64,000 bases of DNA, taken from positions 128,138 through 192,137 of the IMG/VR virus record IMGVR_UViG_3300031552_000001; one strand, written 5' to 3'. The position numbers and the translations under genes were made by a program. Below the pieces are notes generated by a model. It had not been told where the DNA came from, searched no databases, and saw only the letters and a list, made by a program, of their open reading frames with translations. Below are positions 28,766-64,000 of the stretch, piece after piece. This DNA comes from a virus. How positions within the stretch are numbered: position 1 is the stretch's first letter; every line of letters begins with the position of its first letter.

Positions 28766-29602
28766 ATGTCAGTCCGCAACCTTGAGATCCTTGCAAGCAA
28801 TTACGCCTTTTCATTTCCAACAAAAATGCTCACAGCTATCAAAGAAAACGCAGTGTCGGGCCAAACAATAAACTATCGCACAACATTAGGCGGCAGAGCT
28901 GACATAGAGCAGAAGCGCCTAAGCTCTGTTCTAAATATGCGCCCGGTACCTGGAGTCATAGGTATTTCTGTCCGGCCAGACCCAGAGTTTGTTGAAATGT
29001 ACCGGCAAGCAGGAATATCTCTTGTCATCATCGACGAAGAGGCAGAAGGGGCGTCCACTATCGCAGTCGATAACTACAAGGGCGGGGTATTGGCCGCAAG
29101 AAGATTTCTTGAATCTGGAAAGAAAATCCCAGGCATCGTTTGCGGAAGAACAGAAGTCAAAGGTGGGATCAACGCAGTACAAAGACTACAAGGGTTCCAA
29201 GACACTCTGGAAAGCGCTGGAAGAGAGAAAGTTCTTTCTCAAAACATCAAACAAGTCCTAGATTACTCTTACCAGGATGGGATCGATTCCATGCAGGAAT
29301 TCTTCCGTCAACAAAACCCACCTGACTTCATATTCTCCGCAGCAGGCGACGATTGCGCCGTCGGAATATTGAGAGCCTCTGTGAATTTTGGACTTAGTGT
29401 TCCAAAGGACCTCTCGGTCATGGGCTTCGATGATCTGGAAATGGCAAAAATGACTACTCCCACATTAACGACGATACGGCAGCCTATAAAAGAAATTGCT
29501 GCAAGAGCGTATGGCATAGCGTCTACTATGGGGAATAGGTACATAGACAGCCCAGAACAGATAGTACTGGAACCAACTCTTGTAGAAAGAGACTCGGCGT
29601 AA
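28766..29602 (+). CDS. LacI/GalR-family effector-binding domain protein lacking the N-terminal HTH
   Basis: SLVIID...TIAVDNYKGGVLAARRF...RLQGF...PDFIFSAAGDDCAVGIL...VPKDLSVMGFDD...PTLTTIRQP; 278 aa, no HTH upstream in any frame inspected. Confidence 0.88.
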   Translation: MSVRNLEILASNYAFSFPTKMLTAIKENAVSGQTINYRTTLGGRADIEQKRLSSVLNMRPVPGVIGISVRPDPEFVEMYRQAGISLVIIDEEAEGASTIAVDNYKGGVLAARRFLESGKKIPGIVCGRTEVKGGINAVQRLQGFQDTLESAGREKVLSQNIKQVLDYSYQDGIDSMQEFFRQQNPPDFIFSAAGDDCAVGILRASVNFGLSVPKDLSVMGFDDLEMAKMTTPTLTTIRQPIKEIAARAYGIASTMGNRYIDSPEQIVLEPTLVERDSA

Positions 29603-45674: not shown

Positions 45675-46616
45675 TCAAACCAGCTTCTTCGAAATGATGT
45701 AGCGTAACATAGCTTCCTTCTGGCCTATCTGTTCTACCGCTTTATCTAACCCAGGGCCTAATCTAGTATCTCCTAGAGTAAACCACGACCCCTCCTTCGA
45801 TATCAGTCCGACATCCAGACTTAAACGGAATAAGTCGAGAAGTTTATTTATACCCCCACGCTTTCCAAGCGGCAGTCTAATCATCCTTGCGGGCCGAGCT
45901 AGCGTATTCGCTACTATGTCCACAACTATATCTTTCTCGCCTCCTTTAGTGCTGCCCTTAGCCAAAAACATCCTAGTGCTAAACTGGCTCACGAGTTTTT
46001 TTGCAGCCGTATCCACCTCTGCTTTCACAAAAAAGTTGCGGGGGTCTACGCTATACTTGCCCCTTACCTGATTGGTCATAACAATGCTGGAAGATGGATT
46101 AAGAATCGGTAGGGCCTTCTCCAAAAAATAGCCAATCATTGATGGCCAACACTCAGAGCTGCCGTACGTAGGCCGTAGACTCGTAACAGTGTCAAAAGAG
46201 AGAAGTAGTCTTTCCTCCCTATGACGCCGCAAAAACGTCATTGCTTCGTGTAACACGTACTCGCCATGGCCCGTAACAGTAACCAGCGAGGCTAAATCGA
46301 CGCCTACCTCCTTCATGTAAGGGACGTCTAAATATTCCGTAGGGCATAGGGCTACAATAAAACCATTATTTTGGGCTTGCCTCAGTATCTCATAGAGAAT
46401 AGTGGTTTTACCGCAAGAATACTCTCCATAAAGTTCGACGGCCCCCGAAGGCAATCCCCCGCCAAGAGCTATATCTAAACTAAGTATGCCCGTATCTGTA
46501 GACCTACCTGCACTCACTTTTGAACTTTTCGATAGGCCTCCTAAAACGTCACACAGCTCAGAGTGCTTAGTACGAACAGAATTCTTCATGTCCTCTATAG
46601 ACTTTGTAAACAGCAT
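45675..46616 (-). CDS. recA: RecA/UvsX-like recombinase (divergent)
   Basis: STDTGILSLDIALGGGLPSGAVELYGEYSCGKTT (Walker A), IVMTNQVR, GLISKEGSWF. Confidence 0.88.
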   Translation of the reverse strand: MLFTKSIEDMKNSVRTKHSELCDVLGGLSKSSKVSAGRSTDTGILSLDIALGGGLPSGAVELYGEYSCGKTTILYEILRQAQNNGFIVALCPTEYLDVPYMKEVGVDLASLVTVTGHGEYVLHEAMTFLRRHREERLLLSFDTVTSLRPTYGSSECWPSMIGYFLEKALPILNPSSSIVMTNQVRGKYSVDPRNFFVKAEVDTAAKKLVSQFSTRMFLAKGSTKGGEKDIVVDIVANTLARPARMIRLPLGKRGGINKLLDLFRLSLDVGLISKEGSWFTLGDTRLGPGLDKAVEQIGQKEAMLRYIISKKLV

Positions 46617-46725: not shown

Positions 46726-47772
46726 GTGGAGAAGTTCTTACTCCTCACTCACCCCAGGGGAAACGGAGACTACCCTATGATTGAGCCAGAAGAAGTTCGC
46801 GCTTTAGTAGTTTGCTCGCCTGAACGTCTAGGCCTCCTAGCCGAGAGTATGGGAATACCTTTTCAGGAAGCGCAAGACATTAGAAGCCAAGCTACTAACT
46901 TGGTACTGGGAAAGTGTTCTTTATGCGGGGCTCCTGCACCGTCAGGCATATGCGAAGAATGCCAAGCTTCCAATTCTTCTATGTTTAACTGCTCAGGAGC
47001 AGAGTTCTTACAGAAGCTGAAGCCCGCAACCGTAGTTCTAAAAAGAACCTGTACAGAATGTAACGCTCCTGTAGCTCTAAGCGCCTCGTACCTGCTTTGG
47101 AAGATTATCAGGAGGCCCGCCGCTAAGCCGAAAGGACTGTGTAAAGCTTGTCTGAAAAACAGAAAAAGCAAAAAAAGAGCGGAGTCTAGCTCTAACGCGG
47201 CAACACGGAGCAGCAACTTCATGTTCCGCCCGTTTGACGGGCATAAGGCCCTCGAGGCTATGAAGGAAACACTACGGAAAACTACCGATAGAAGCGCTAT
47301 AAGCAAAAAAGGCTCAAATACTGAAAAACACAGGGTTTTTCAGGTAAAAGAAGAGTGGACGAGCAAAACGCCCGTCTATAACTCATTTGCACCAGACCTT
47401 CTGGTGTATCCGGAGGAACACATGTCAGAGCAACAAGCAGCTTCGCCTCAAAAAGAAAAACACACAAAAAATCCATTCACAACTGACCCCGGCAAAGTGG
47501 CCAACCTTCTCGGTCAGCTCAGCAGTGCCCCCTCTGCTAAAGAAGCAGAGAAGATTCTCATTGAGAATCGAAAAACTCTCACTGGCGCCTTTCATGACAT
47601 TCGCCGAGCCGAGCGAGTGGGAATGCCTCTGTACGAGAGGTTCTTGAATCGAGCCGCAGAAAACCGTGTTTGGGACAAAATTCGGCTTGCTCGTGACGGC
47701 GTCCTAACGGGCGTAGCATGCGTCTTCGGTTGGAAGGGCCTCAAGTGGGTGATCGGTTACATCCGCTCGTAG
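46726..47772 (+). CDS. multi-zinc-ribbon protein with C-terminal hydrophobic helix (may be two fused units)
   Basis: CSLC, CEEC, CTEC and CKAC motifs. Confidence 0.5.
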   Translation: MEKFLLLTHPRGNGDYPMIEPEEVRALVVCSPERLGLLAESMGIPFQEAQDIRSQATNLVLGKCSLCGAPAPSGICEECQASNSSMFNCSGAEFLQKLKPATVVLKRTCTECNAPVALSASYLLWKIIRRPAAKPKGLCKACLKNRKSKKRAESSSNAATRSSNFMFRPFDGHKALEAMKETLRKTTDRSAISKKGSNTEKHRVFQVKEEWTSKTPVYNSFAPDLLVYPEEHMSEQQAASPQKEKHTKNPFTTDPGKVANLLGQLSSAPSAKEAEKILIENRKTLTGAFHDIRRAERVGMPLYERFLNRAAENRVWDKIRLARDGVLTGVACVFGWKGLKWVIGYIRS

Positions 47773-47785
47773 GCATCAAGCCTGC

Positions 47786-47817
47786 AGCTAGGGTAGAGCG
47801 AAAGCTCTACCCTAGCT
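47786..47817 (+). terminator. 14-bp perfect hairpin with GAAA loop
   Basis: AGCTAGGGTAGAGC-GAAA-GCTCTACCCTAGCT directly after the stop codon. Confidence 0.65.
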
Positions 47818-47845
47818 TCCACTCAACAAGCAACACTTAGCCCGT

Positions 47846-47872
47846 GAAAGCGTCGATGTTTTCGGTATAAGA
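47846..47872 (+). promoter_or_regulatory. phage promoter motif GAAA-N13-CGGTATAAGA
   Basis: Motif match upstream of the structured leader and histone gene. Confidence 0.55.
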
Positions 47873-47960
47873 AAATTGGAACCCAATAGTGGCTCTTACA
47901 TTACCAACAAGAACATTTCCTTAAAACAGTATGAGCCCACTGTTGAGTTGCCTAGTCTCC

Positions 47961-48038
47961 GCGGTGCGGGTTCGGGCTTTCCTAAATTTGTTCCTCCAAT
48001 AAGTGTAGTTCTCCGGGGAAAGTCCGAACCTGCGCCGT
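47961..48038 (+). ncRNA. candidate structured RNA or leader: 23-bp stem with five G-U pairs
   Basis: 47961-47983 pairs with 48016-48038; every non-Watson-Crick position is G-U on the plus strand. Confidence 0.45.
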
Positions 48039-48078
48039 AATTATTGTTTTTTACAACCCACTCCTCTAAGATGCGCTC

Positions 48079-48342
48079 ATGGCCAACAACGACGAAACAA
48101 CAAGCGAAGTACCTCTCCTCGTAAAAATGAGCAAACTCATGGACGTATACAAGAGTATGCAAGAAGAGAACGAGGAAGGAAATATCGTACCTCTAAGAAT
48201 GCATGTGTCTAAGGAGTTCAAAGAAGAGCTCAATGTGTTTATTCATAACACACTCTTTGACTGTGCCGAGCATGCTATTGAAAAAGGAAGAAAGAAGCTA
48301 CTGCCAGAAGACGTGCCTTCGTCTTTACAGTGGGACGAGTAG
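48079..48342 (+). CDS. bacterial-type histone-fold protein (Bd0055-like)
   Basis: PLLVKMSKL...MHVSKEFKEELNVFIHNTLFDCAEHAIEKGRKKLLPEDV matches the alpha1 / alpha2 / A-x-x-x-G-R-K-x-(V/L)-x-x-x-D histone-fold pattern. Confidence 0.72.
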   Translation: MANNDETTSEVPLLVKMSKLMDVYKSMQEENEEGNIVPLRMHVSKEFKEELNVFIHNTLFDCAEHAIEKGRKKLLPEDVPSSLQWDE

Positions 48343-48455
48343 CTTTCAACGCCCAATATAAGAAGTTGGTTGGTTGAGACTTCACCTAAACTCGACGCTT
48401 TAAACGCTCGAGCTTAATGAGCTCCTCCGGAACCTCCGAAGTCTCTACCTTCCAG

Positions 48456-48490
48456 GGGGTGAGCTGTCTCCAGGCGGCTCACCCCTATTT
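48456..48490. terminator. hairpin between convergent genes
   Basis: GGGGTGAGCTG/CGGCTCACCCC followed by TATTTT. Confidence 0.6.
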
Positions 48491-49063
48491 TCTTTTAACC
48501 AGTCCATATACACTTCTGAGAAAAATCACGTCTCTGTCCGTGACTGTATACACCCCGTTAAGCTCCCCGCCATACATGGCGCTTCCATGAATCTTATCAT
48601 GAGTTAATCCAAGGCAATGACCTAACGCGTGGACAAAATCTCGCTCTAATTCTCCGACAGTTTTATGTTTCCATATAGGCTTTACAAATATAGTAGCTTT
48701 GGACAAAGTGCCTCGTTCATCTACCCAATATCTAGTGTACATGGTAGAAAAACTTTTGTCTTCTTTCCTAGATGCCGCCACTACAGAAATTACGTTCGAG
48801 CTTACTCCAACCTCGCCAGGGGTAATAAACAGGGGCAGCCCTACCTTCTTGTTCCAATATGCGGATGCGGAAATCAGGGCCTTTAGCAATTTTCCGTCAT
48901 TTCTCTTGAGTTCTGTACTCACCGCTAAAAGAAGTGGCGGCCACTTTCGATCAAACGACTTTATATCTGGGGGCAGGTACGATAGTTTTCGTCTATAGGG
49001 CCACACCAGCAGTGCCACCATCCCCAGAAGGGTAAGGACCCCTATCGTTCCTAGAAAAAGCAT
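48485..49063 (-). CDS. membrane-anchored matrixin/M10-like metalloprotease homologue with catalytic Glu replaced by Ala
   Basis: N-terminal TM helix; HALGHCLGLTH...SAMY in place of HExxHxxGxxH plus Met-turn. Confidence 0.7.
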   Translation of the reverse strand: MLFLGTIGVLTLLGMVALLVWPYRRKLSYLPPDIKSFDRKWPPLLLAVSTELKRNDGKLLKALISASAYWNKKVGLPLFITPGEVGVSSNVISVVAASRKEDKSFSTMYTRYWVDERGTLSKATIFVKPIWKHKTVGELERDFVHALGHCLGLTHDKIHGSAMYGGELNGVYTVTDRDVIFLRSVYGLVKRK

Positions 49064-51848: not shown

Positions 51849-51868
51849 ACGCCTTCTCCGGTATAAGA
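51840..51868 (+). promoter_or_regulatory. phage promoter motif GAAA-N15-CGGTATAAGA
   Basis: Exact geometry. Confidence 0.6.
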
Positions 51869-52183: not shown

Positions 52184-52260
52184 GTCCCCGTAGCTCAGAT
52201 GGATAGAGTTCCTGCCCTCTAAGCAGAGAGTCGAAGGTTCGAGTCCTTCCGGGGACGCCA
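52184..52260 (+). tRNA. tRNA-Arg (TCT), encoded CCA, C at position 33
   Basis: GTCCCCG/CGGGGAC acceptor stem, D-arm, CCTGC-CCTCTAA-GCAGA, TTCGAGT T-loop. Confidence 0.9.
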
Positions 52261-52287
52261 AAATGGAGCAGCTTTCGAACGATAAGA
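52259..52287 (+). promoter_or_regulatory. phage promoter-like motif CAAA-N15-AACGATAAGA upstream of tRNA-Ile2
   Basis: Motif geometry; ends 8 nt before the tRNA. Confidence 0.45.
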
Positions 52288-52295
52288 CTTTACAC

Positions 52296-52372
52296 GGACC
52301 TGTAGCTCAGACGGTTAGAGCAAGCGGCTCATAACCGCACGGTCGGGGGTTCGACTCCCTCCGGGTCCACCA
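52296..52372 (+). tRNA. tRNA with CAT anticodon, most likely tRNA-Ile2 (lysidine) rather than Met
   Basis: GGACCTG/CGGGTCC acceptor stem, A73, GCGG-CTCATAA-CCGC; resembles bacterial Ile2 (GGACC...GGCTCATAACC...GGTCCACCA); lacks initiator features. Confidence 0.8.
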
Positions 52373-52379
52373 AAACGCG

Positions 52380-52456
52380 GGTTGTGTAGCTCAGTAGGTC
52401 AGAGCGCCGGTCTCCAAAACCGGAGGTCGTGGGTTCGACTCCCGCCCTTCCCGCCA
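52380..52456 (+). tRNA. tRNA-Trp (CCA) with poorly paired acceptor stem (possible pseudo-tRNA)
   Basis: Canonical CCGGT-CTCCAAA-ACCGG arm and T-arm; acceptor GGTTGTG versus CCTTCCC has three mismatches. Confidence 0.7.
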
Positions 52457-52941: not shown

Positions 52942-53385
52942 ATGCAAACATTTCTCCCATACGCAAACTTTGAAGCTTCTGCCTCCGTACTAGATTATCG
53001 AAGGCTCGGAAAGCAAAGAGTAGAAGCCTTTCAGATACTGCAAACACTACAAGGCCGACCTAGTAGATGGGCTAACCACCCTGCTGTAATACAATGGAAG
53101 GGTTATGAGGACTCCCTCTCCTATTACGGAAGGGTAGTATGCCTTGAGTGGAGGGCTCGAGGATACAAAGACAGCATGCTAGAAAAGTTCAAGGTAGCTT
53201 GTGTGCACACAAAGCCTCCATGGCTCGGCTTTGAGCCTTTTCACTCCTCACATCGATCAAACTTGCTGCGAAAGGACAAAGACTATTACTCTCAATTCGG
53301 CTGGAAAGAACCGGTGGACCTTCCATACGTGTGGCCGTCTAAGTTAAAAGCTGTACAGCAACTCGAGAGGCTGAAATGGCTCTAA
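52942..53385 (+). CDS. pyrimidine-dimer DNA glycosylase-family protein (MSMEG_6728-like)
   Basis: MQTFLPY...LDYRRLGKQRVEA...NHPAVIQW...HSSHRSNLLRKD...LPYVWP. Confidence 0.85.
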   Translation: MQTFLPYANFEASASVLDYRRLGKQRVEAFQILQTLQGRPSRWANHPAVIQWKGYEDSLSYYGRVVCLEWRARGYKDSMLEKFKVACVHTKPPWLGFEPFHSSHRSNLLRKDKDYYSQFGWKEPVDLPYVWPSKLKAVQQLERLKWL

Positions 53386-61448: not shown

Positions 61449-62771
61449 CTACTTGGCGTATTTGACTAATAAGTAGTTAAGGTGTTTTCGCAGTAGCCCT
61501 CCGAAGTTCTCGTTTAGCGTCCATGTAGAGTGCTCCCAAGAGGTTGGTTTGGTATTCTTATCCCTTATCGGCGATACCATTCCCAAGGCCTTTGCCTTAT
61601 TTGAAATTTCGCTAAACGTGTCATCTAAACCCTCAATGCCTATTCCTAGCAGCTTGCACAGCTCTTTAGTGGCTGCTTCTTGCTTAGACCCCGCTAACAT
61701 GTACAGTACGCTTCTTGCGCCATATGACATGCTTTGATACAGCTTTTCTACTAAATCCTTATCCCAATTCTCGCTTGACGATGTACTTGACCCATCTGGT
61801 AATGTCGCTTCTCCTTTCTCCTCAGATGTATCCTTGCGTGAATCATCTTCCGAATCCGTCGAACTTATATCCTTTACGGCTCTCCACCTATTTAAGCTCG
61901 TCAGGACTAACGTTCCCGGCCGAATCTCTTCAATAGGTACGTCTCCTTTAATCGTTCTAACTAAAGTACCCGCTGGAAAGCAACCGTAGTATTCAGGCGG
62001 CGTTAACGTATCTAGCTTGCCCGTAAGCCCCTCTATACGGGTTAAAAACGATAACAACGCCGCTTTGAAGGTCTTGTGTAATGCCCATATTGGCCACTTC
62101 CAAGCTGAGTCCGGGTCCGGCCTGCTCCGTCTTATCGGGGTTTCCATTCCCAATTCTTTAGCCTTATTAGAAATATCTAAAAACACCCCGTCTAATGCCC
62201 TAACATTTATTTGGTCGACGCTTATTCCACACTCGTTCCGCGCTAACTGATTCAATACGCTCCTCGCCTCATCCGATACGCCTTGATACAATCTCCCCGC
62301 TGAATCCCTATCCCAGTTAGCGCCCAATGGCTCACTTACTTCCTCTGACTCTTGCTCTAGTTCAGGACAGCTGCACTCTCTAAAACAAGTAAACGAACGC
62401 ATCATTTCGCTAAAGCGTTTCTGCATGTCTCTAGCGATAGAGTGATACTCTGCTTCTGAGAGGTTACACCTCTTCAAAGTGTTTTCCCTCTCCATGAACT
62501 CTTTCAAGGGTAGACAAGTAGAGGCAACAAACGCCCTCTCCAAATCCCTGAAGGAAATCTTCTTCCCCTCCGTAGTCACCATTACTTTTTTCTTACAGCA
62601 CTCGTGATTAGACTTCTTAACTAGCCCATCTGCGTATTTGCCTACGGGAAATGGAATGTCTCGGTCTTCAATTGAGGTCACTACCCTCATACCTAAGTTG
62701 CTAAACGCCTCCTTAATCTCCTCTGGCGTGTTTTCTGAAACCTCAATCCCTTCAATCTCTATACGAGCCAT
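61449..62771 (-). CDS. protein with two homologous helical (possibly winged-helix) repeats separated by a truncated Hint/intein N-terminal segment
   Basis: NWD...LYQ...ARSVL...ISNKAK.LGM..PIR twice; CFPAGTLVRTIKGDVPIEEIRPGTLVLT between them. Confidence 0.65.
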   Translation of the reverse strand: MARIEIEGIEVSENTPEEIKEAFSNLGMRVVTSIEDRDIPFPVGKYADGLVKKSNHECCKKKVMVTTEGKKISFRDLERAFVASTCLPLKEFMERENTLKRCNLSEAEYHSIARDMQKRFSEMMRSFTCFRECSCPELEQESEEVSEPLGANWDRDSAGRLYQGVSDEARSVLNQLARNECGISVDQINVRALDGVFLDISNKAKELGMETPIRRSRPDPDSAWKWPIWALHKTFKAALLSFLTRIEGLTGKLDTLTPPEYYGCFPAGTLVRTIKGDVPIEEIRPGTLVLTSLNRWRAVKDISSTDSEDDSRKDTSEEKGEATLPDGSSTSSSENWDKDLVEKLYQSMSYGARSVLYMLAGSKQEAATKELCKLLGIGIEGLDDTFSEISNKAKALGMVSPIRDKNTKPTSWEHSTWTLNENFGGLLRKHLNYLLVKYAK

Positions 62772-63921: not shown

Positions 63922-63950
63922 CAAACTGCGCGGGTTGGTAGGGTATAAGA
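63922..63950 (+). promoter_or_regulatory. phage promoter motif CAAA-N15-GGGTATAAGA
   Basis: Exact geometry; SD TAGGAGG and an ATG follow at the window end. Confidence 0.6.
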
Positions 63951-64000
63951 GAGGTGGACAAATTACTCTATTTTAGGAGGCGCATATGGGGCGCGAGGTT

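Follow-up and report, generated by a model that had tools for sequence, protein, structure and literature searches.

An acidic phage protein family with a predicted alpha3-truncated histone fold

The gene, its reading frame and its homologues

The DNA analysed here (the window) is the final 64 kb of the 192,137-bp IMG/VR virus record IMGVR_UViG_3300031552_000001, for which CheckV gives a completeness of 100%. We studied a short gene at 48079-48342 on the plus strand of this window, whose 87-aa product very probably adopts a histone fold and belongs to a small acidic family. An initial annotation, made from the sequence, had pointed to an 87-aa open reading frame (ORF) carrying three histone-like segments, and the frame reads exactly as quoted there: LVKMSKL occupies residues 14-20, MHVSKEFKEEL residues 41-51 and AIEKGRKKLLPED residues 66-78. 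The acidic insert that it described is also found (QEENEEG, residues 28-34), as are the two acidic termini. The protein has 18 acidic and 10 basic residues, a net charge of −8 and a pI of 4.8. The gene and the parts of its product, with the confidence of the structural model as the predicted local distance difference test (pLDDT), are as follows.

48079..48342, plus strand: histone-fold gene; ATG start, 87 aa, stop codon included
48079..48111, plus strand: N-terminal tail, residues 1-11; disordered and acidic, net −3, pLDDT below 50 at residues 1-8
48112..48159, plus strand: alpha1 region, residues 12-27; DSSP helix at 17-25, invariant Y24 in the predicted dimer core, aligned from residue 4 of the histone HBb (Bd0055) of Bdellovibrio bacteriovorus
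48160..48192, plus strand: L1 hairpin, residues 28-38 (QEENEEGNIVP); an 11-residue acidic, family-specific beta-hairpin with strands at 28-30 and 36-38, pLDDT 86-89
48193..48282, plus strand: L1 and alpha2, residues 39-68; K/R40, Q/H42 and T/S44, alpha2 at 45-68, invariant F47 and N52
48283..48318, plus strand: L2 and alpha3, residues 69-80; RxTxxxxD motif (G-R71-K-K-L-L-P-E-D78-V-P) with the RD clamp R71-D78
48319..48339, plus strand: C-terminal tail, residues 81-87; short and acidic

When 1.84 billion representative proteins were scanned exhaustively with phmmer, 10 short homologues were obtained, and a profile search of 5.8 billion proteins brought the family to 22 members including the window copy. 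The 21 homologues are 26-56% identical to the window protein, and the family lengths are 80-97 aa. Y24, F47, N52, R71 and D78 are invariant across all 22 members, and G34, A66 and P80 are nearly invariant in the family alignment. The family was met solely on phage-like metagenomic contigs, the longest of 199.6 kb, and one member carries the JGI annotation ‘histone H3/H4’. A search of the 192-kb genome with the family profile found a single copy. Because there are 21 homologues, five invariant residues and a conserved synteny (described below), the ORF is almost certainly a real gene and not a chance reading frame.

The start codon is likewise supported by conservation. Residues 12-20, with the pattern P-x-L-L-[KN], are kept in every homologue, which favours a start at 48079 or, at the least, one that precedes residue 12. 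In the public annotation the gene (P0001, window 48139-48342) is too short: it has 67 aa, begins at M21 and loses half of alpha1. The ESM Atlas model of this shortened protein is poor (pLDDT 0.48), which may be one reason why the family has escaped notice.

The window protein alone had no Pfam match at E ≤ 10, nothing significant by phmmer against the PDB and no significant tblastn match among 50,697 phage records. In PHROGs it matched just phrog_18009, a family of unknown function, at E 0.012. A pattern based on the six closest members gave 395 matches in further IMG/VR records, none of which was confirmed. When all family members were compared with Pfam, sub-threshold matches were obtained to DUF1931 (6 of 22), Histone (PF00125, 4 of 22) and TFIID-18kDa, with a best E of 0.003; all of these are histone folds.

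The C-terminal ends of the family show some regularity. D-V-P-x-[IV] followed by a terminal [EQ]-E-V-COOH is found in six members, and in two long-tailed ones the chain closes with EPEITLVE or EPEITIID. From their sequences, these ends are possible candidates for short docking motifs in the acidic tail.

Sequence and model evidence for a histone fold

We compared the family profile with all PDB sequences. The best match was HTkC of Thermococcus kodakarensis (9F2C, E 2e-4), and HBb (8FVX, 8CMP) was found at E 0.035. The next matches were mostly HPhA, NF-YC, H3 and HMfB, and laxer cut-offs added dozens of H4 chains. An hhalign comparison with an alignment of 20 HBb relatives gave a probability of 80.6% and an E-value of 1.3e-5 over 40 columns, covering L1-alpha2-L2-alpha3. 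The initial annotation had proposed an alignment with Bd0055, and HMMER bears this out by aligning MNTS...AKADGRKTVMARDI of Bd0055 with residues 41-79 of the window protein.

The AlphaFold2 model of the window protein has a pLDDT of 82, with helices at 17-25, 45-68 and 76-78 and a pLDDT of 91-95 in alpha2. In this model alpha2 has 24 residues and alpha3 is a single turn (76-78), which corresponds to the definition of alpha3-truncated histones in PMC11390915, namely an alpha3 that has just 3-4 residues together with an alpha2 that does not reach the length found in nucleosomal histones. The best 50 Foldseek matches in the PDB were all histone-fold proteins, and HBb (probability 1.00, TM by target 0.78-0.84), HTkC (0.86-0.89) and HLp stood at the top of the list. 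An exhaustive VIA structural alignment against 48,161 representative chains listed 50 entries, and all of them were histone-fold proteins. The top three were HTkC (Z 6.6, root-mean-square deviation (rmsd) 1.2 Å, 58/58 residues), HBb (Z 6.4, 1.5 Å, 58/58) and HLp (Z 6.0, 1.3 Å, 56/56). These are the three solved alpha3-truncated histones, and each was covered completely. TAF, CENP-S/X, NC2 and Dpb3/4 were also among the VIA matches, at Z 4-5.5.

The most divergent member (P0026, 26% identity) was modelled as well. Its helices lie at 15-23, 40-63 and 71-73, and it has the same best matches as the window protein, with HBb at Z 7.0 over 63/63 residues. Shape and feature searches of the ESM Atlas lead to the same prokaryotic histone clusters. 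In BFVD no viral structure was matched at E ≤ 0.001, and the best two rows (probability 0.99) were unnamed proteins. The Bd0055-type histone proposed initially would have been refuted by a different fold or by unrelated best matches. Foldseek, hhalign, HMMER and AlphaFold2 all give an alpha3-truncated histone fold instead, and the best matches are all histone-fold proteins. We conclude that the 87-aa protein very probably has a histone fold. The structural models and profiles agree that its closest types are HBb/Bd0055, HTkC and HLp, that is, the alpha3-truncated form.

Another possible assignment was a truncated SUMO/ubiquitin-like domain (Rad60-SLD, PF11976), as phmmer matched three giant poly-SUMO proteins at E 1e-8 to 1e-11. 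Residues 31-86 align ungapped to every repeat of these proteins (P0005, P0007, P0009). However, each repeat alone scores merely 26-30 bits at 22-27% identity, and the E-value is the sum over 6-9 near-identical repeats. No ubiquitin-like PDB chain was found with the family profile at E ≤ 10 or in the structural match lists, and a 24-residue alpha2 at pLDDT 91-95 does not suit a beta-grasp fold. The matches are a false positive because their significance comes from repeat summation, and we rejected this assignment with near certainty.

Histone dimers are known from solved structures, and an AlphaFold homodimer had been suggested as a check. The two-copy prediction gave an ipSAE of 0.85, compared with 0.00 for the best of three controls. 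In a calibration on solved proteins, 20 of 30 homodimers and 1 of 23 monomers reached this ipSAE mark. The runs had at least 98% of contacts in common, and the pLDDT of the partner was 86. In the predicted complex L1 (residues 42-44) and F47 face L2/alpha3 (residues 73-79) of the other chain, and the alpha2 helices cross at 55:55, as in the histone handshake. Because histone dimers are among the solved structures, this result shows likeness and is not proof. Still, the model makes it likely that a handshake homodimer forms. No second histone-fold gene that could serve as a heterodimer partner was found in the genome with the family profile or PF00808.

Charge, DNA-contact positions and relation to known histones

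All 22 members are acidic, with pI values of 4.1-4.8 and net charges of −5 to −13 per chain. A halophilic origin of this acidity was rejected, since the phage proteome has a median pI of 6.9 and only 18% of its long ORFs are below pI 5. The histone-fold core (alpha1 plus L1 to alpha3) has a family mean charge of +1.8. The appendages sum to a family mean of −10.7, of which the L1 hairpin contributes −5.6 (range −3 to −8 among the 22 members), the N-terminal tail −2.0 and the C-terminal tail −3.0. For comparison, 20 HBb relatives have net charges of +1 to +2 and pI values of 7.9-8.9. Thus, the acidity is an add-on, because the core is charged like a bacterial histone and the negative charge lies in the appendages. 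The hairpin is an insert relative to HBb and HTkC and is skipped in the structural alignments, in which 58 of the 68-69 residues spanned are aligned. Its positions 29-33 are acidic in 15-19 of the 22 members and are followed by the nearly invariant G34.

The DNA contacts of HBb include the RD clamp (R51-D58) and the KT motif (K52-T53), and molecular dynamics ranked its contact residues as N22, R57, S9, T53, T8, S24, K10, K12, K52 and K16 (PMC11317129). We mapped these contacts onto the family through HMMER alignments, the register in alpha1 being taken from the ranges of the structural alignment. The result is listed below, with the HBb residue, the position in the family, the window copy and the state of the 22 members.

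HBb R51/D58, at R71/D78: kept in the window copy; invariant in 22/22
HBb K52, at 72: K in the window copy; K/R in 11/22
HBb T53, at 73: K in the window copy; T in 15/22
HBb N22, at 42: H in the window copy; Q in 16/22
HBb S24, at 44: S in the window copy; T/S in 20/22, polar in 22/22
HBb S9, at 18: S in the window copy; N/S/T in 20/22
HBb R57, at 77: E in the window copy; acidic in 19/22
HBb K10, at 19: K in the window copy; A in 12/22
HBb K12, at 21: M in the window copy; Q in 13/22
HBb K16, at 25: K in the window copy; Q in 18/22

The counterpart of position 77 in HMfB is acidic too. Additional basic residues are conserved at positions 40 (K/R in 21/22), 48 (K/R in 20/22) and 50 (K/R in 17/22). 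From this alignment, the paired-loop (L1-L2) site looks maintained and the alpha1 face largely de-charged. Histone-fold categories that are thought not to bind DNA have lost their contact residues (PMC11390915). Because the loop contact residues are kept here, a pure scaffold is not favoured. That some DNA binding has been retained is close to an even call.

HBb (8FVX, 8CMP, 9EZZ) is similar to the family over its whole fold (Z 6.4-7.0, rmsd 1.5-1.7 Å, 58-63 residues). The two share a one-turn alpha3, the RD clamp (R51/D58, here R71/D78), an L2 of the K-T type, polar L1 positions (N22/S24, here Q/H42 and T/S44), a homodimer, which is predicted here, and a similar net charge of the fold core. 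However, the identity is about 25%, and the hhalign match covers L1 to alpha3 only. The family adds the 11-residue acidic L1 hairpin and the acidic tails (pI 4.1-4.8 against 7.9-8.9). Its counterparts of the alpha1 residues K10, K12 and K16 are mostly A or Q, and R57 is replaced by E77. HBb is also chromosomal, whereas the present gene is phage-borne. The family falls outside the ‘bacterial dimer’ (HBb-type) category on two counts. The alpha1 lysines (K11, K13 and K17 of the logo) are A, Q and Q in the majority of members, with a match to the HBb family that extends over 40 columns only, and the charge is acidic throughout instead of neutral to basic.

HTkC, a face-to-face histone, is the best match both by PDB sequence and by structure, its MRVSPEF...AEGRKTLYAR aligning with KMQATKEF...GRKTLWPE of the family. 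HTkC and HLp (Leptospira perolatii, 9QT0) differ from the family in having no acidic hairpin or tails. They are reported to form tetramers that wrap or bridge DNA (PMC12701072; 10.64898/2025.12.06.692711). In face-to-face histones the two dimers join through the conserved R48/N52 (logo numbering); the present model covers the dimer.

Histone folds of the alpha3 type in phages have been published before, as ‘phage histones’ (PMC11390915) and as VTTH, VHHH, VFFH and BBVH (10.1101/2024.12.06.627149 = PMC13681535). Like the present family, they come from tailed phages and are known solely from metagenomes. The phage histones of Schwab et al. 2024 (PMC11390915) have no RxTxxxD motif and carry a C-terminal tetramerisation helix, which VTTH shares. 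Liu et al. (10.1101/2024.12.06.627149) described BBVH as a Bd0055-like dimer in which a helix replaces the flexible C-terminus and which matches the Bd0055 hidden Markov model at 1e-5, and VFFH as having a lysine-rich N-terminal tail. The present family differs in that it keeps RxTxxxxD, ends 7 residues after alpha3 and carries the acidic appendages and the L1 hairpin. Neither AlphaFold2 model (window protein, P0026) has a C-terminal helix. No acidic phage histone is described in PMC11390915 or 10.1101/2024.12.06.627149, and a full-text literature search for a histone-fold DNA mimic in phages returned nothing relevant. On the features checkable in the published descriptions, the family appears to match none of the described phage histone types.

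The same data bear on the idea of a canonical histone, that is, an abundant nucleoid protein that coats, compacts or shields phage or host DNA. The histone fold, the RD clamp and the KT-type loop are in line with it, and so is the arrangement of the gene as its own promoter-to-terminator unit (see below). HBb and HLp are indeed abundant chromatin proteins (PMC11390915, PMC11317129). However, each chain has a net charge between −5 and −13 in 22/22 members, compared with +1 to +2 in the HBb family, the acidic hairpins adjoin the DNA-contact loops, and most of the alpha1 lysines are gone. A canonical histone is therefore very improbable. Bulk compaction of DNA in general also seems improbable; compaction or shielding of the phage DNA, proposed in the initial annotation, is unlikely at a dimer net charge of about −16 and with the whole family acidic.

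We favour, with modest confidence, a phage-specific and divergent alpha3-truncated histone-fold protein that acts as a gated, low-occupancy DNA bender or architectural dimer. An HBb-like core with the RD clamp and polar or basic paired loops would form the handshake homodimer. The acidic hairpins and tails, worth about −11 per chain, would rival DNA for access to the basic loops, dock basic partners, or do both. The dimer would then bend or organise DNA at low occupancy and under regulation, rather than coat it in bulk.

Similar arrangements exist elsewhere. HMGB1, the single-stranded DNA-binding protein SSB of E. coli, T7 gp2.5 and T4 gp32 join a DNA-binding core to an acidic tail, which competes with DNA and attracts partner proteins; their folds are unrelated to the present one, and the analogy is hypothetical. 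Coiled-coil (CC) archaeal histones combine a histone fold with highly negative disordered tails, and these tails have been proposed as intramolecular inhibitors of the DNA-binding face (PMC11390915). They differ from the present family in being archaeal and having a long coiled coil, whereas here the acidity is also placed in a structured L1 hairpin.

Several points weigh against this gated bender. PF00808 matches nothing in the genome, and no family member exceeds its threshold. The structural scores (Z just 6-7, Foldseek E 0.02-0.1) are weak for a short helical protein; despite them, the case for the fold rests on the uniform match lists and on independent sequence evidence. The alpha1 DNA-contact lysines of HBb (K10, K12, K16) are missing in most members, and positions 22 and 50, R and K in most members, are D and E in the window copy. 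The conserved lysines could be salt-bridged to the hairpin instead of facing DNA. Five consecutive acidic residues lie beside L1, and a dimer of about −16 may bind no DNA at all. No Shine-Dalgarno sequence precedes the histone-fold gene in the window or in the related locus L002, compared with Shine-Dalgarno cores before 58% of the long ORFs of the genome (13% in the background). Finally, the gating reading is inferred, with DNA binding, oligomeric state and expression all predicted.

The main rival to the gated bender is an acidic decoy, in which the histone-fold dimer would be a scaffold for acidic hairpins and tails that trap a basic DNA-binding protein of the host or the phage. Nucleoid proteins, host histones and defence nucleases are conceivable targets, and in a variant put forward in the initial annotation the protein would poison a host alpha3 histone by heterodimerising with it. 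The family pI of 4.1-4.8 against a proteome median of 6.9 points in this direction, no conserved feature is as specific to the family as the acidic hairpin, and the gene lies within a non-structural region beside a conserved basic zinc-ribbon-like protein. Phage acidic inhibitors of host nucleoid proteins or restriction enzymes, such as T4 Arn and T7 Ocr, are well known and offer a precedent. However, the loop residues of the HBb-type DNA contact and the lysines at 40, 48 and 50 are conserved, which would be needless in a pure scaffold, and the homodimer is confidently predicted. No target is known to exist, and the acidic residues seem to cluster in flexible parts, whereas classic DNA mimics array them on a rigid surface. 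We consider the decoy possible but unlikely. Its use as a phage counter-measure, that is, as an acidic ‘anti-histone’ or DNA-mimicking dimer that captures a basic chromatin or defence protein of the host or poisons a host alpha3 histone, is a shade more speculative. If true, it would be the first histone-fold protein known as a decoy instead of a DNA organiser.

Transcription unit, neighbouring genes and meaning of the family

The features around the histone-fold gene are as follows.

45675..46616, minus strand: RecA/UvsX-like recombinase (PF00154, E 8.8e-14; phrog_97), divergent; the syntenic anchor
46726..47772, plus strand: basic Cys-rich zinc-ribbon-like protein, 348 aa, pI 9.5; the conserved upstream neighbour
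47788-47815: hairpin after the preceding gene
47844-47871, plus strand: promoter-like GTGAAA-N16-TATAAG, inside the recurring motif TTTCGGTATAAGA
47878..48052, plus strand: structured, non-coding leader or small RNA (sRNA); hairpin 1 at about 47878-47952, a 23-bp hairpin 2 at 47961-48038 and a U-tract at 48047-48052
48455..48496, plus strand: intrinsic-terminator-like hairpin (48455-48486, 14 pairs) with a T-rich tail, shared with the convergent gene 48485-49063 on the minus strand

The motif TTTCGGTATAAGA occurs 6 times in the window, compared with 1.8 expected. The 10-mer CGGTATAAGA has four exact plus-strand copies genome-wide, often with GAAA 16-18 nt upstream, and the promoter-like motif is retained in the related loci L002, L004 and L008. 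The leader was folded with ViennaRNA, and compensatory changes between the window and L002 were found in both of its stems. Its U-tract ends 26 nt ahead of the start codon of the histone-fold gene. A strong hairpin with a T-run lies 24-46 nt before the start codon in 5 of the 6 loci for which DNA is available, and a non-coding gap of 190-338 nt precedes the gene in 10/10 loci. Rfam assigned the leader to no family; the best match was SorY at 18 bits and E 0.5, far under the gathering score.

From these signals the histone-fold gene appears to be its own transcription unit, consisting of the promoter-like motif, a leader of about 170 nt, the gene and the terminator-like hairpin. The space behind the U-tract is too short to hold a promoter, and so transcription of the gene probably relies on read-through of the terminator-like structure, or else the leader is a separate sRNA. 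The leader is thus a candidate attenuator, leader or sRNA. Under the gated bender, expression would run by terminator read-through from this phage-wide promoter-like motif. Three tRNA genes (Arg-TCT, Met-CAT and Trp-CCA; window 52184-52456, plus strand) lie about 320 nt downstream of the CGGTATAAGA copy at 51859.

The locus has the same order in every contig that is long enough: a minus-strand RecA-like gene is followed by one or two genes on the plus strand, the 190-338-nt gap and the histone-fold gene. Short contigs show the same gap upstream of the gene. A RecA_N gene is found at the equivalent place in L002, L004/5, L007 and three further contigs, and the RecA synteny is seen in 7 contigs. 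Downstream in the related loci come small genes, followed by ThyX or ThyA together with an AcrVA2-like gene. The small genes vary across loci, with the sole exception of a 65-67-aa Cys-rich protein that is shared by L004 and L007 and absent from the window.

The zinc-ribbon-like neighbour has no Pfam or PHROG family. It is 50% identical to the product of L002 8689-9678, and its two halves match separate genes in L004 and L007. It is a single gene in the window and L002, is split in L007 (6762-7265 and 7369-7704) and is reduced in L004 (9377-9694). These neighbours have pI values of 9.5-10.6, a G-K-C-x-L-C...C-x-x-C motif and a hydrophobic C-terminal segment. The protein is a possible candidate for a basic partner of the acidic histone-fold protein.

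The neighbourhood also bears on a third explanation, a protein-protein histone-fold module of the TAF/NC2/NF-Y type. Such a module would serve the phage machinery of transcription or of replication and recombination as a subunit or cofactor, perhaps together with a phage-encoded RNA polymerase or the neighbouring RecA, and would make little direct contact with DNA. Many histone-fold proteins act in this way, the structural matches include TAF, CENP-S/X, NC2 and Dpb3/4 at Z 4-5.5, and the RecA synteny is conserved. However, the genome has no second histone-fold gene by the family profile and PF00808, and in structure as well as sequence the family comes closest to DNA-binding alpha3 histones and not to TAFs. 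This explanation is improbable.

Several other genes were noted. The convergent gene at 48485-49063 (minus strand) encodes 192 aa, whose zinc site (HxxGHxxGLxH) weakly matches Matrixin/Peptidase_M10 (E 0.0024), and it has homologues of the same size at L002 11121-11696 and L004 14991-15569. AcrVA2-like genes (PF26125, with weak to clear matches) occur at L004 13467-14750, L007 14959-16119 and L008 3087-3817; in the related phages they lie, together with ThyX or ThyA, a few kb downstream of the histone-fold gene. Elsewhere in the window a pyrimidine-dimer DNA glycosylase of the DenV type (PF03013, E 1e-21) is encoded at 52942-53385 (plus strand), and the product of 61449-62771 (minus strand; 440 aa) matches a Hint domain over residues 263-307. 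The last 60 nt of the record (192078-192137; window 63941-64000) repeat nt 79-138. IMG/VR classes the record as linear without end repeats despite this apparent short terminal overlap, which would be consistent with a complete, circularly assembled genome.

We also searched for clues to the host. The phage is remote from all GenBank phages by tblastn, and neither its ligase nor a structural protein has a tblastn match in them. All RecA matches are below 33% identity and give no informative relative for host assignment, and the terminase Pfam models PF03237 and PF17289 match nothing in the genome. At 28766-29602 (plus strand) a LacI-family sensor of the periplasmic-binding type is encoded (Peripla_BP_3, E 1e-19), which has no DNA-binding head; its relatives in Oscillospiraceae, Burkholderiales and Brevibacillus are just 26-33% identical and offer no host clue. 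The structural relatives nearest to the histone-fold family are spread over bacteria and archaea. The suggestion in the initial annotation that the gene points to a histone-bearing host phylum thus finds no support, and the family says nothing on which phylum the host belongs to.

The recognition of bacterial and phage histones dates back no further than 2023-2025, and to our knowledge no phage histone has a known function. The class of phage histone-fold proteins is already published; what is distinctive here is the acidic hairpin and tails on an HBb-like core. As a small (87 aa), apparently soluble and predicted homodimeric protein, the window copy is amenable to direct in vitro work. The conserved leader with its terminator-like hairpin is a second testable element, as a read-through control of the gene. 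The family shows a remodelling of the histone fold, in which the core and the loop residues were kept and about 11 negative charges per chain were gained. Gating of DNA binding by the appendages, if true, would make this a compact case of histone autoinhibition in nature, and a decoy function, if true, would add a new type of protein directed against the host.

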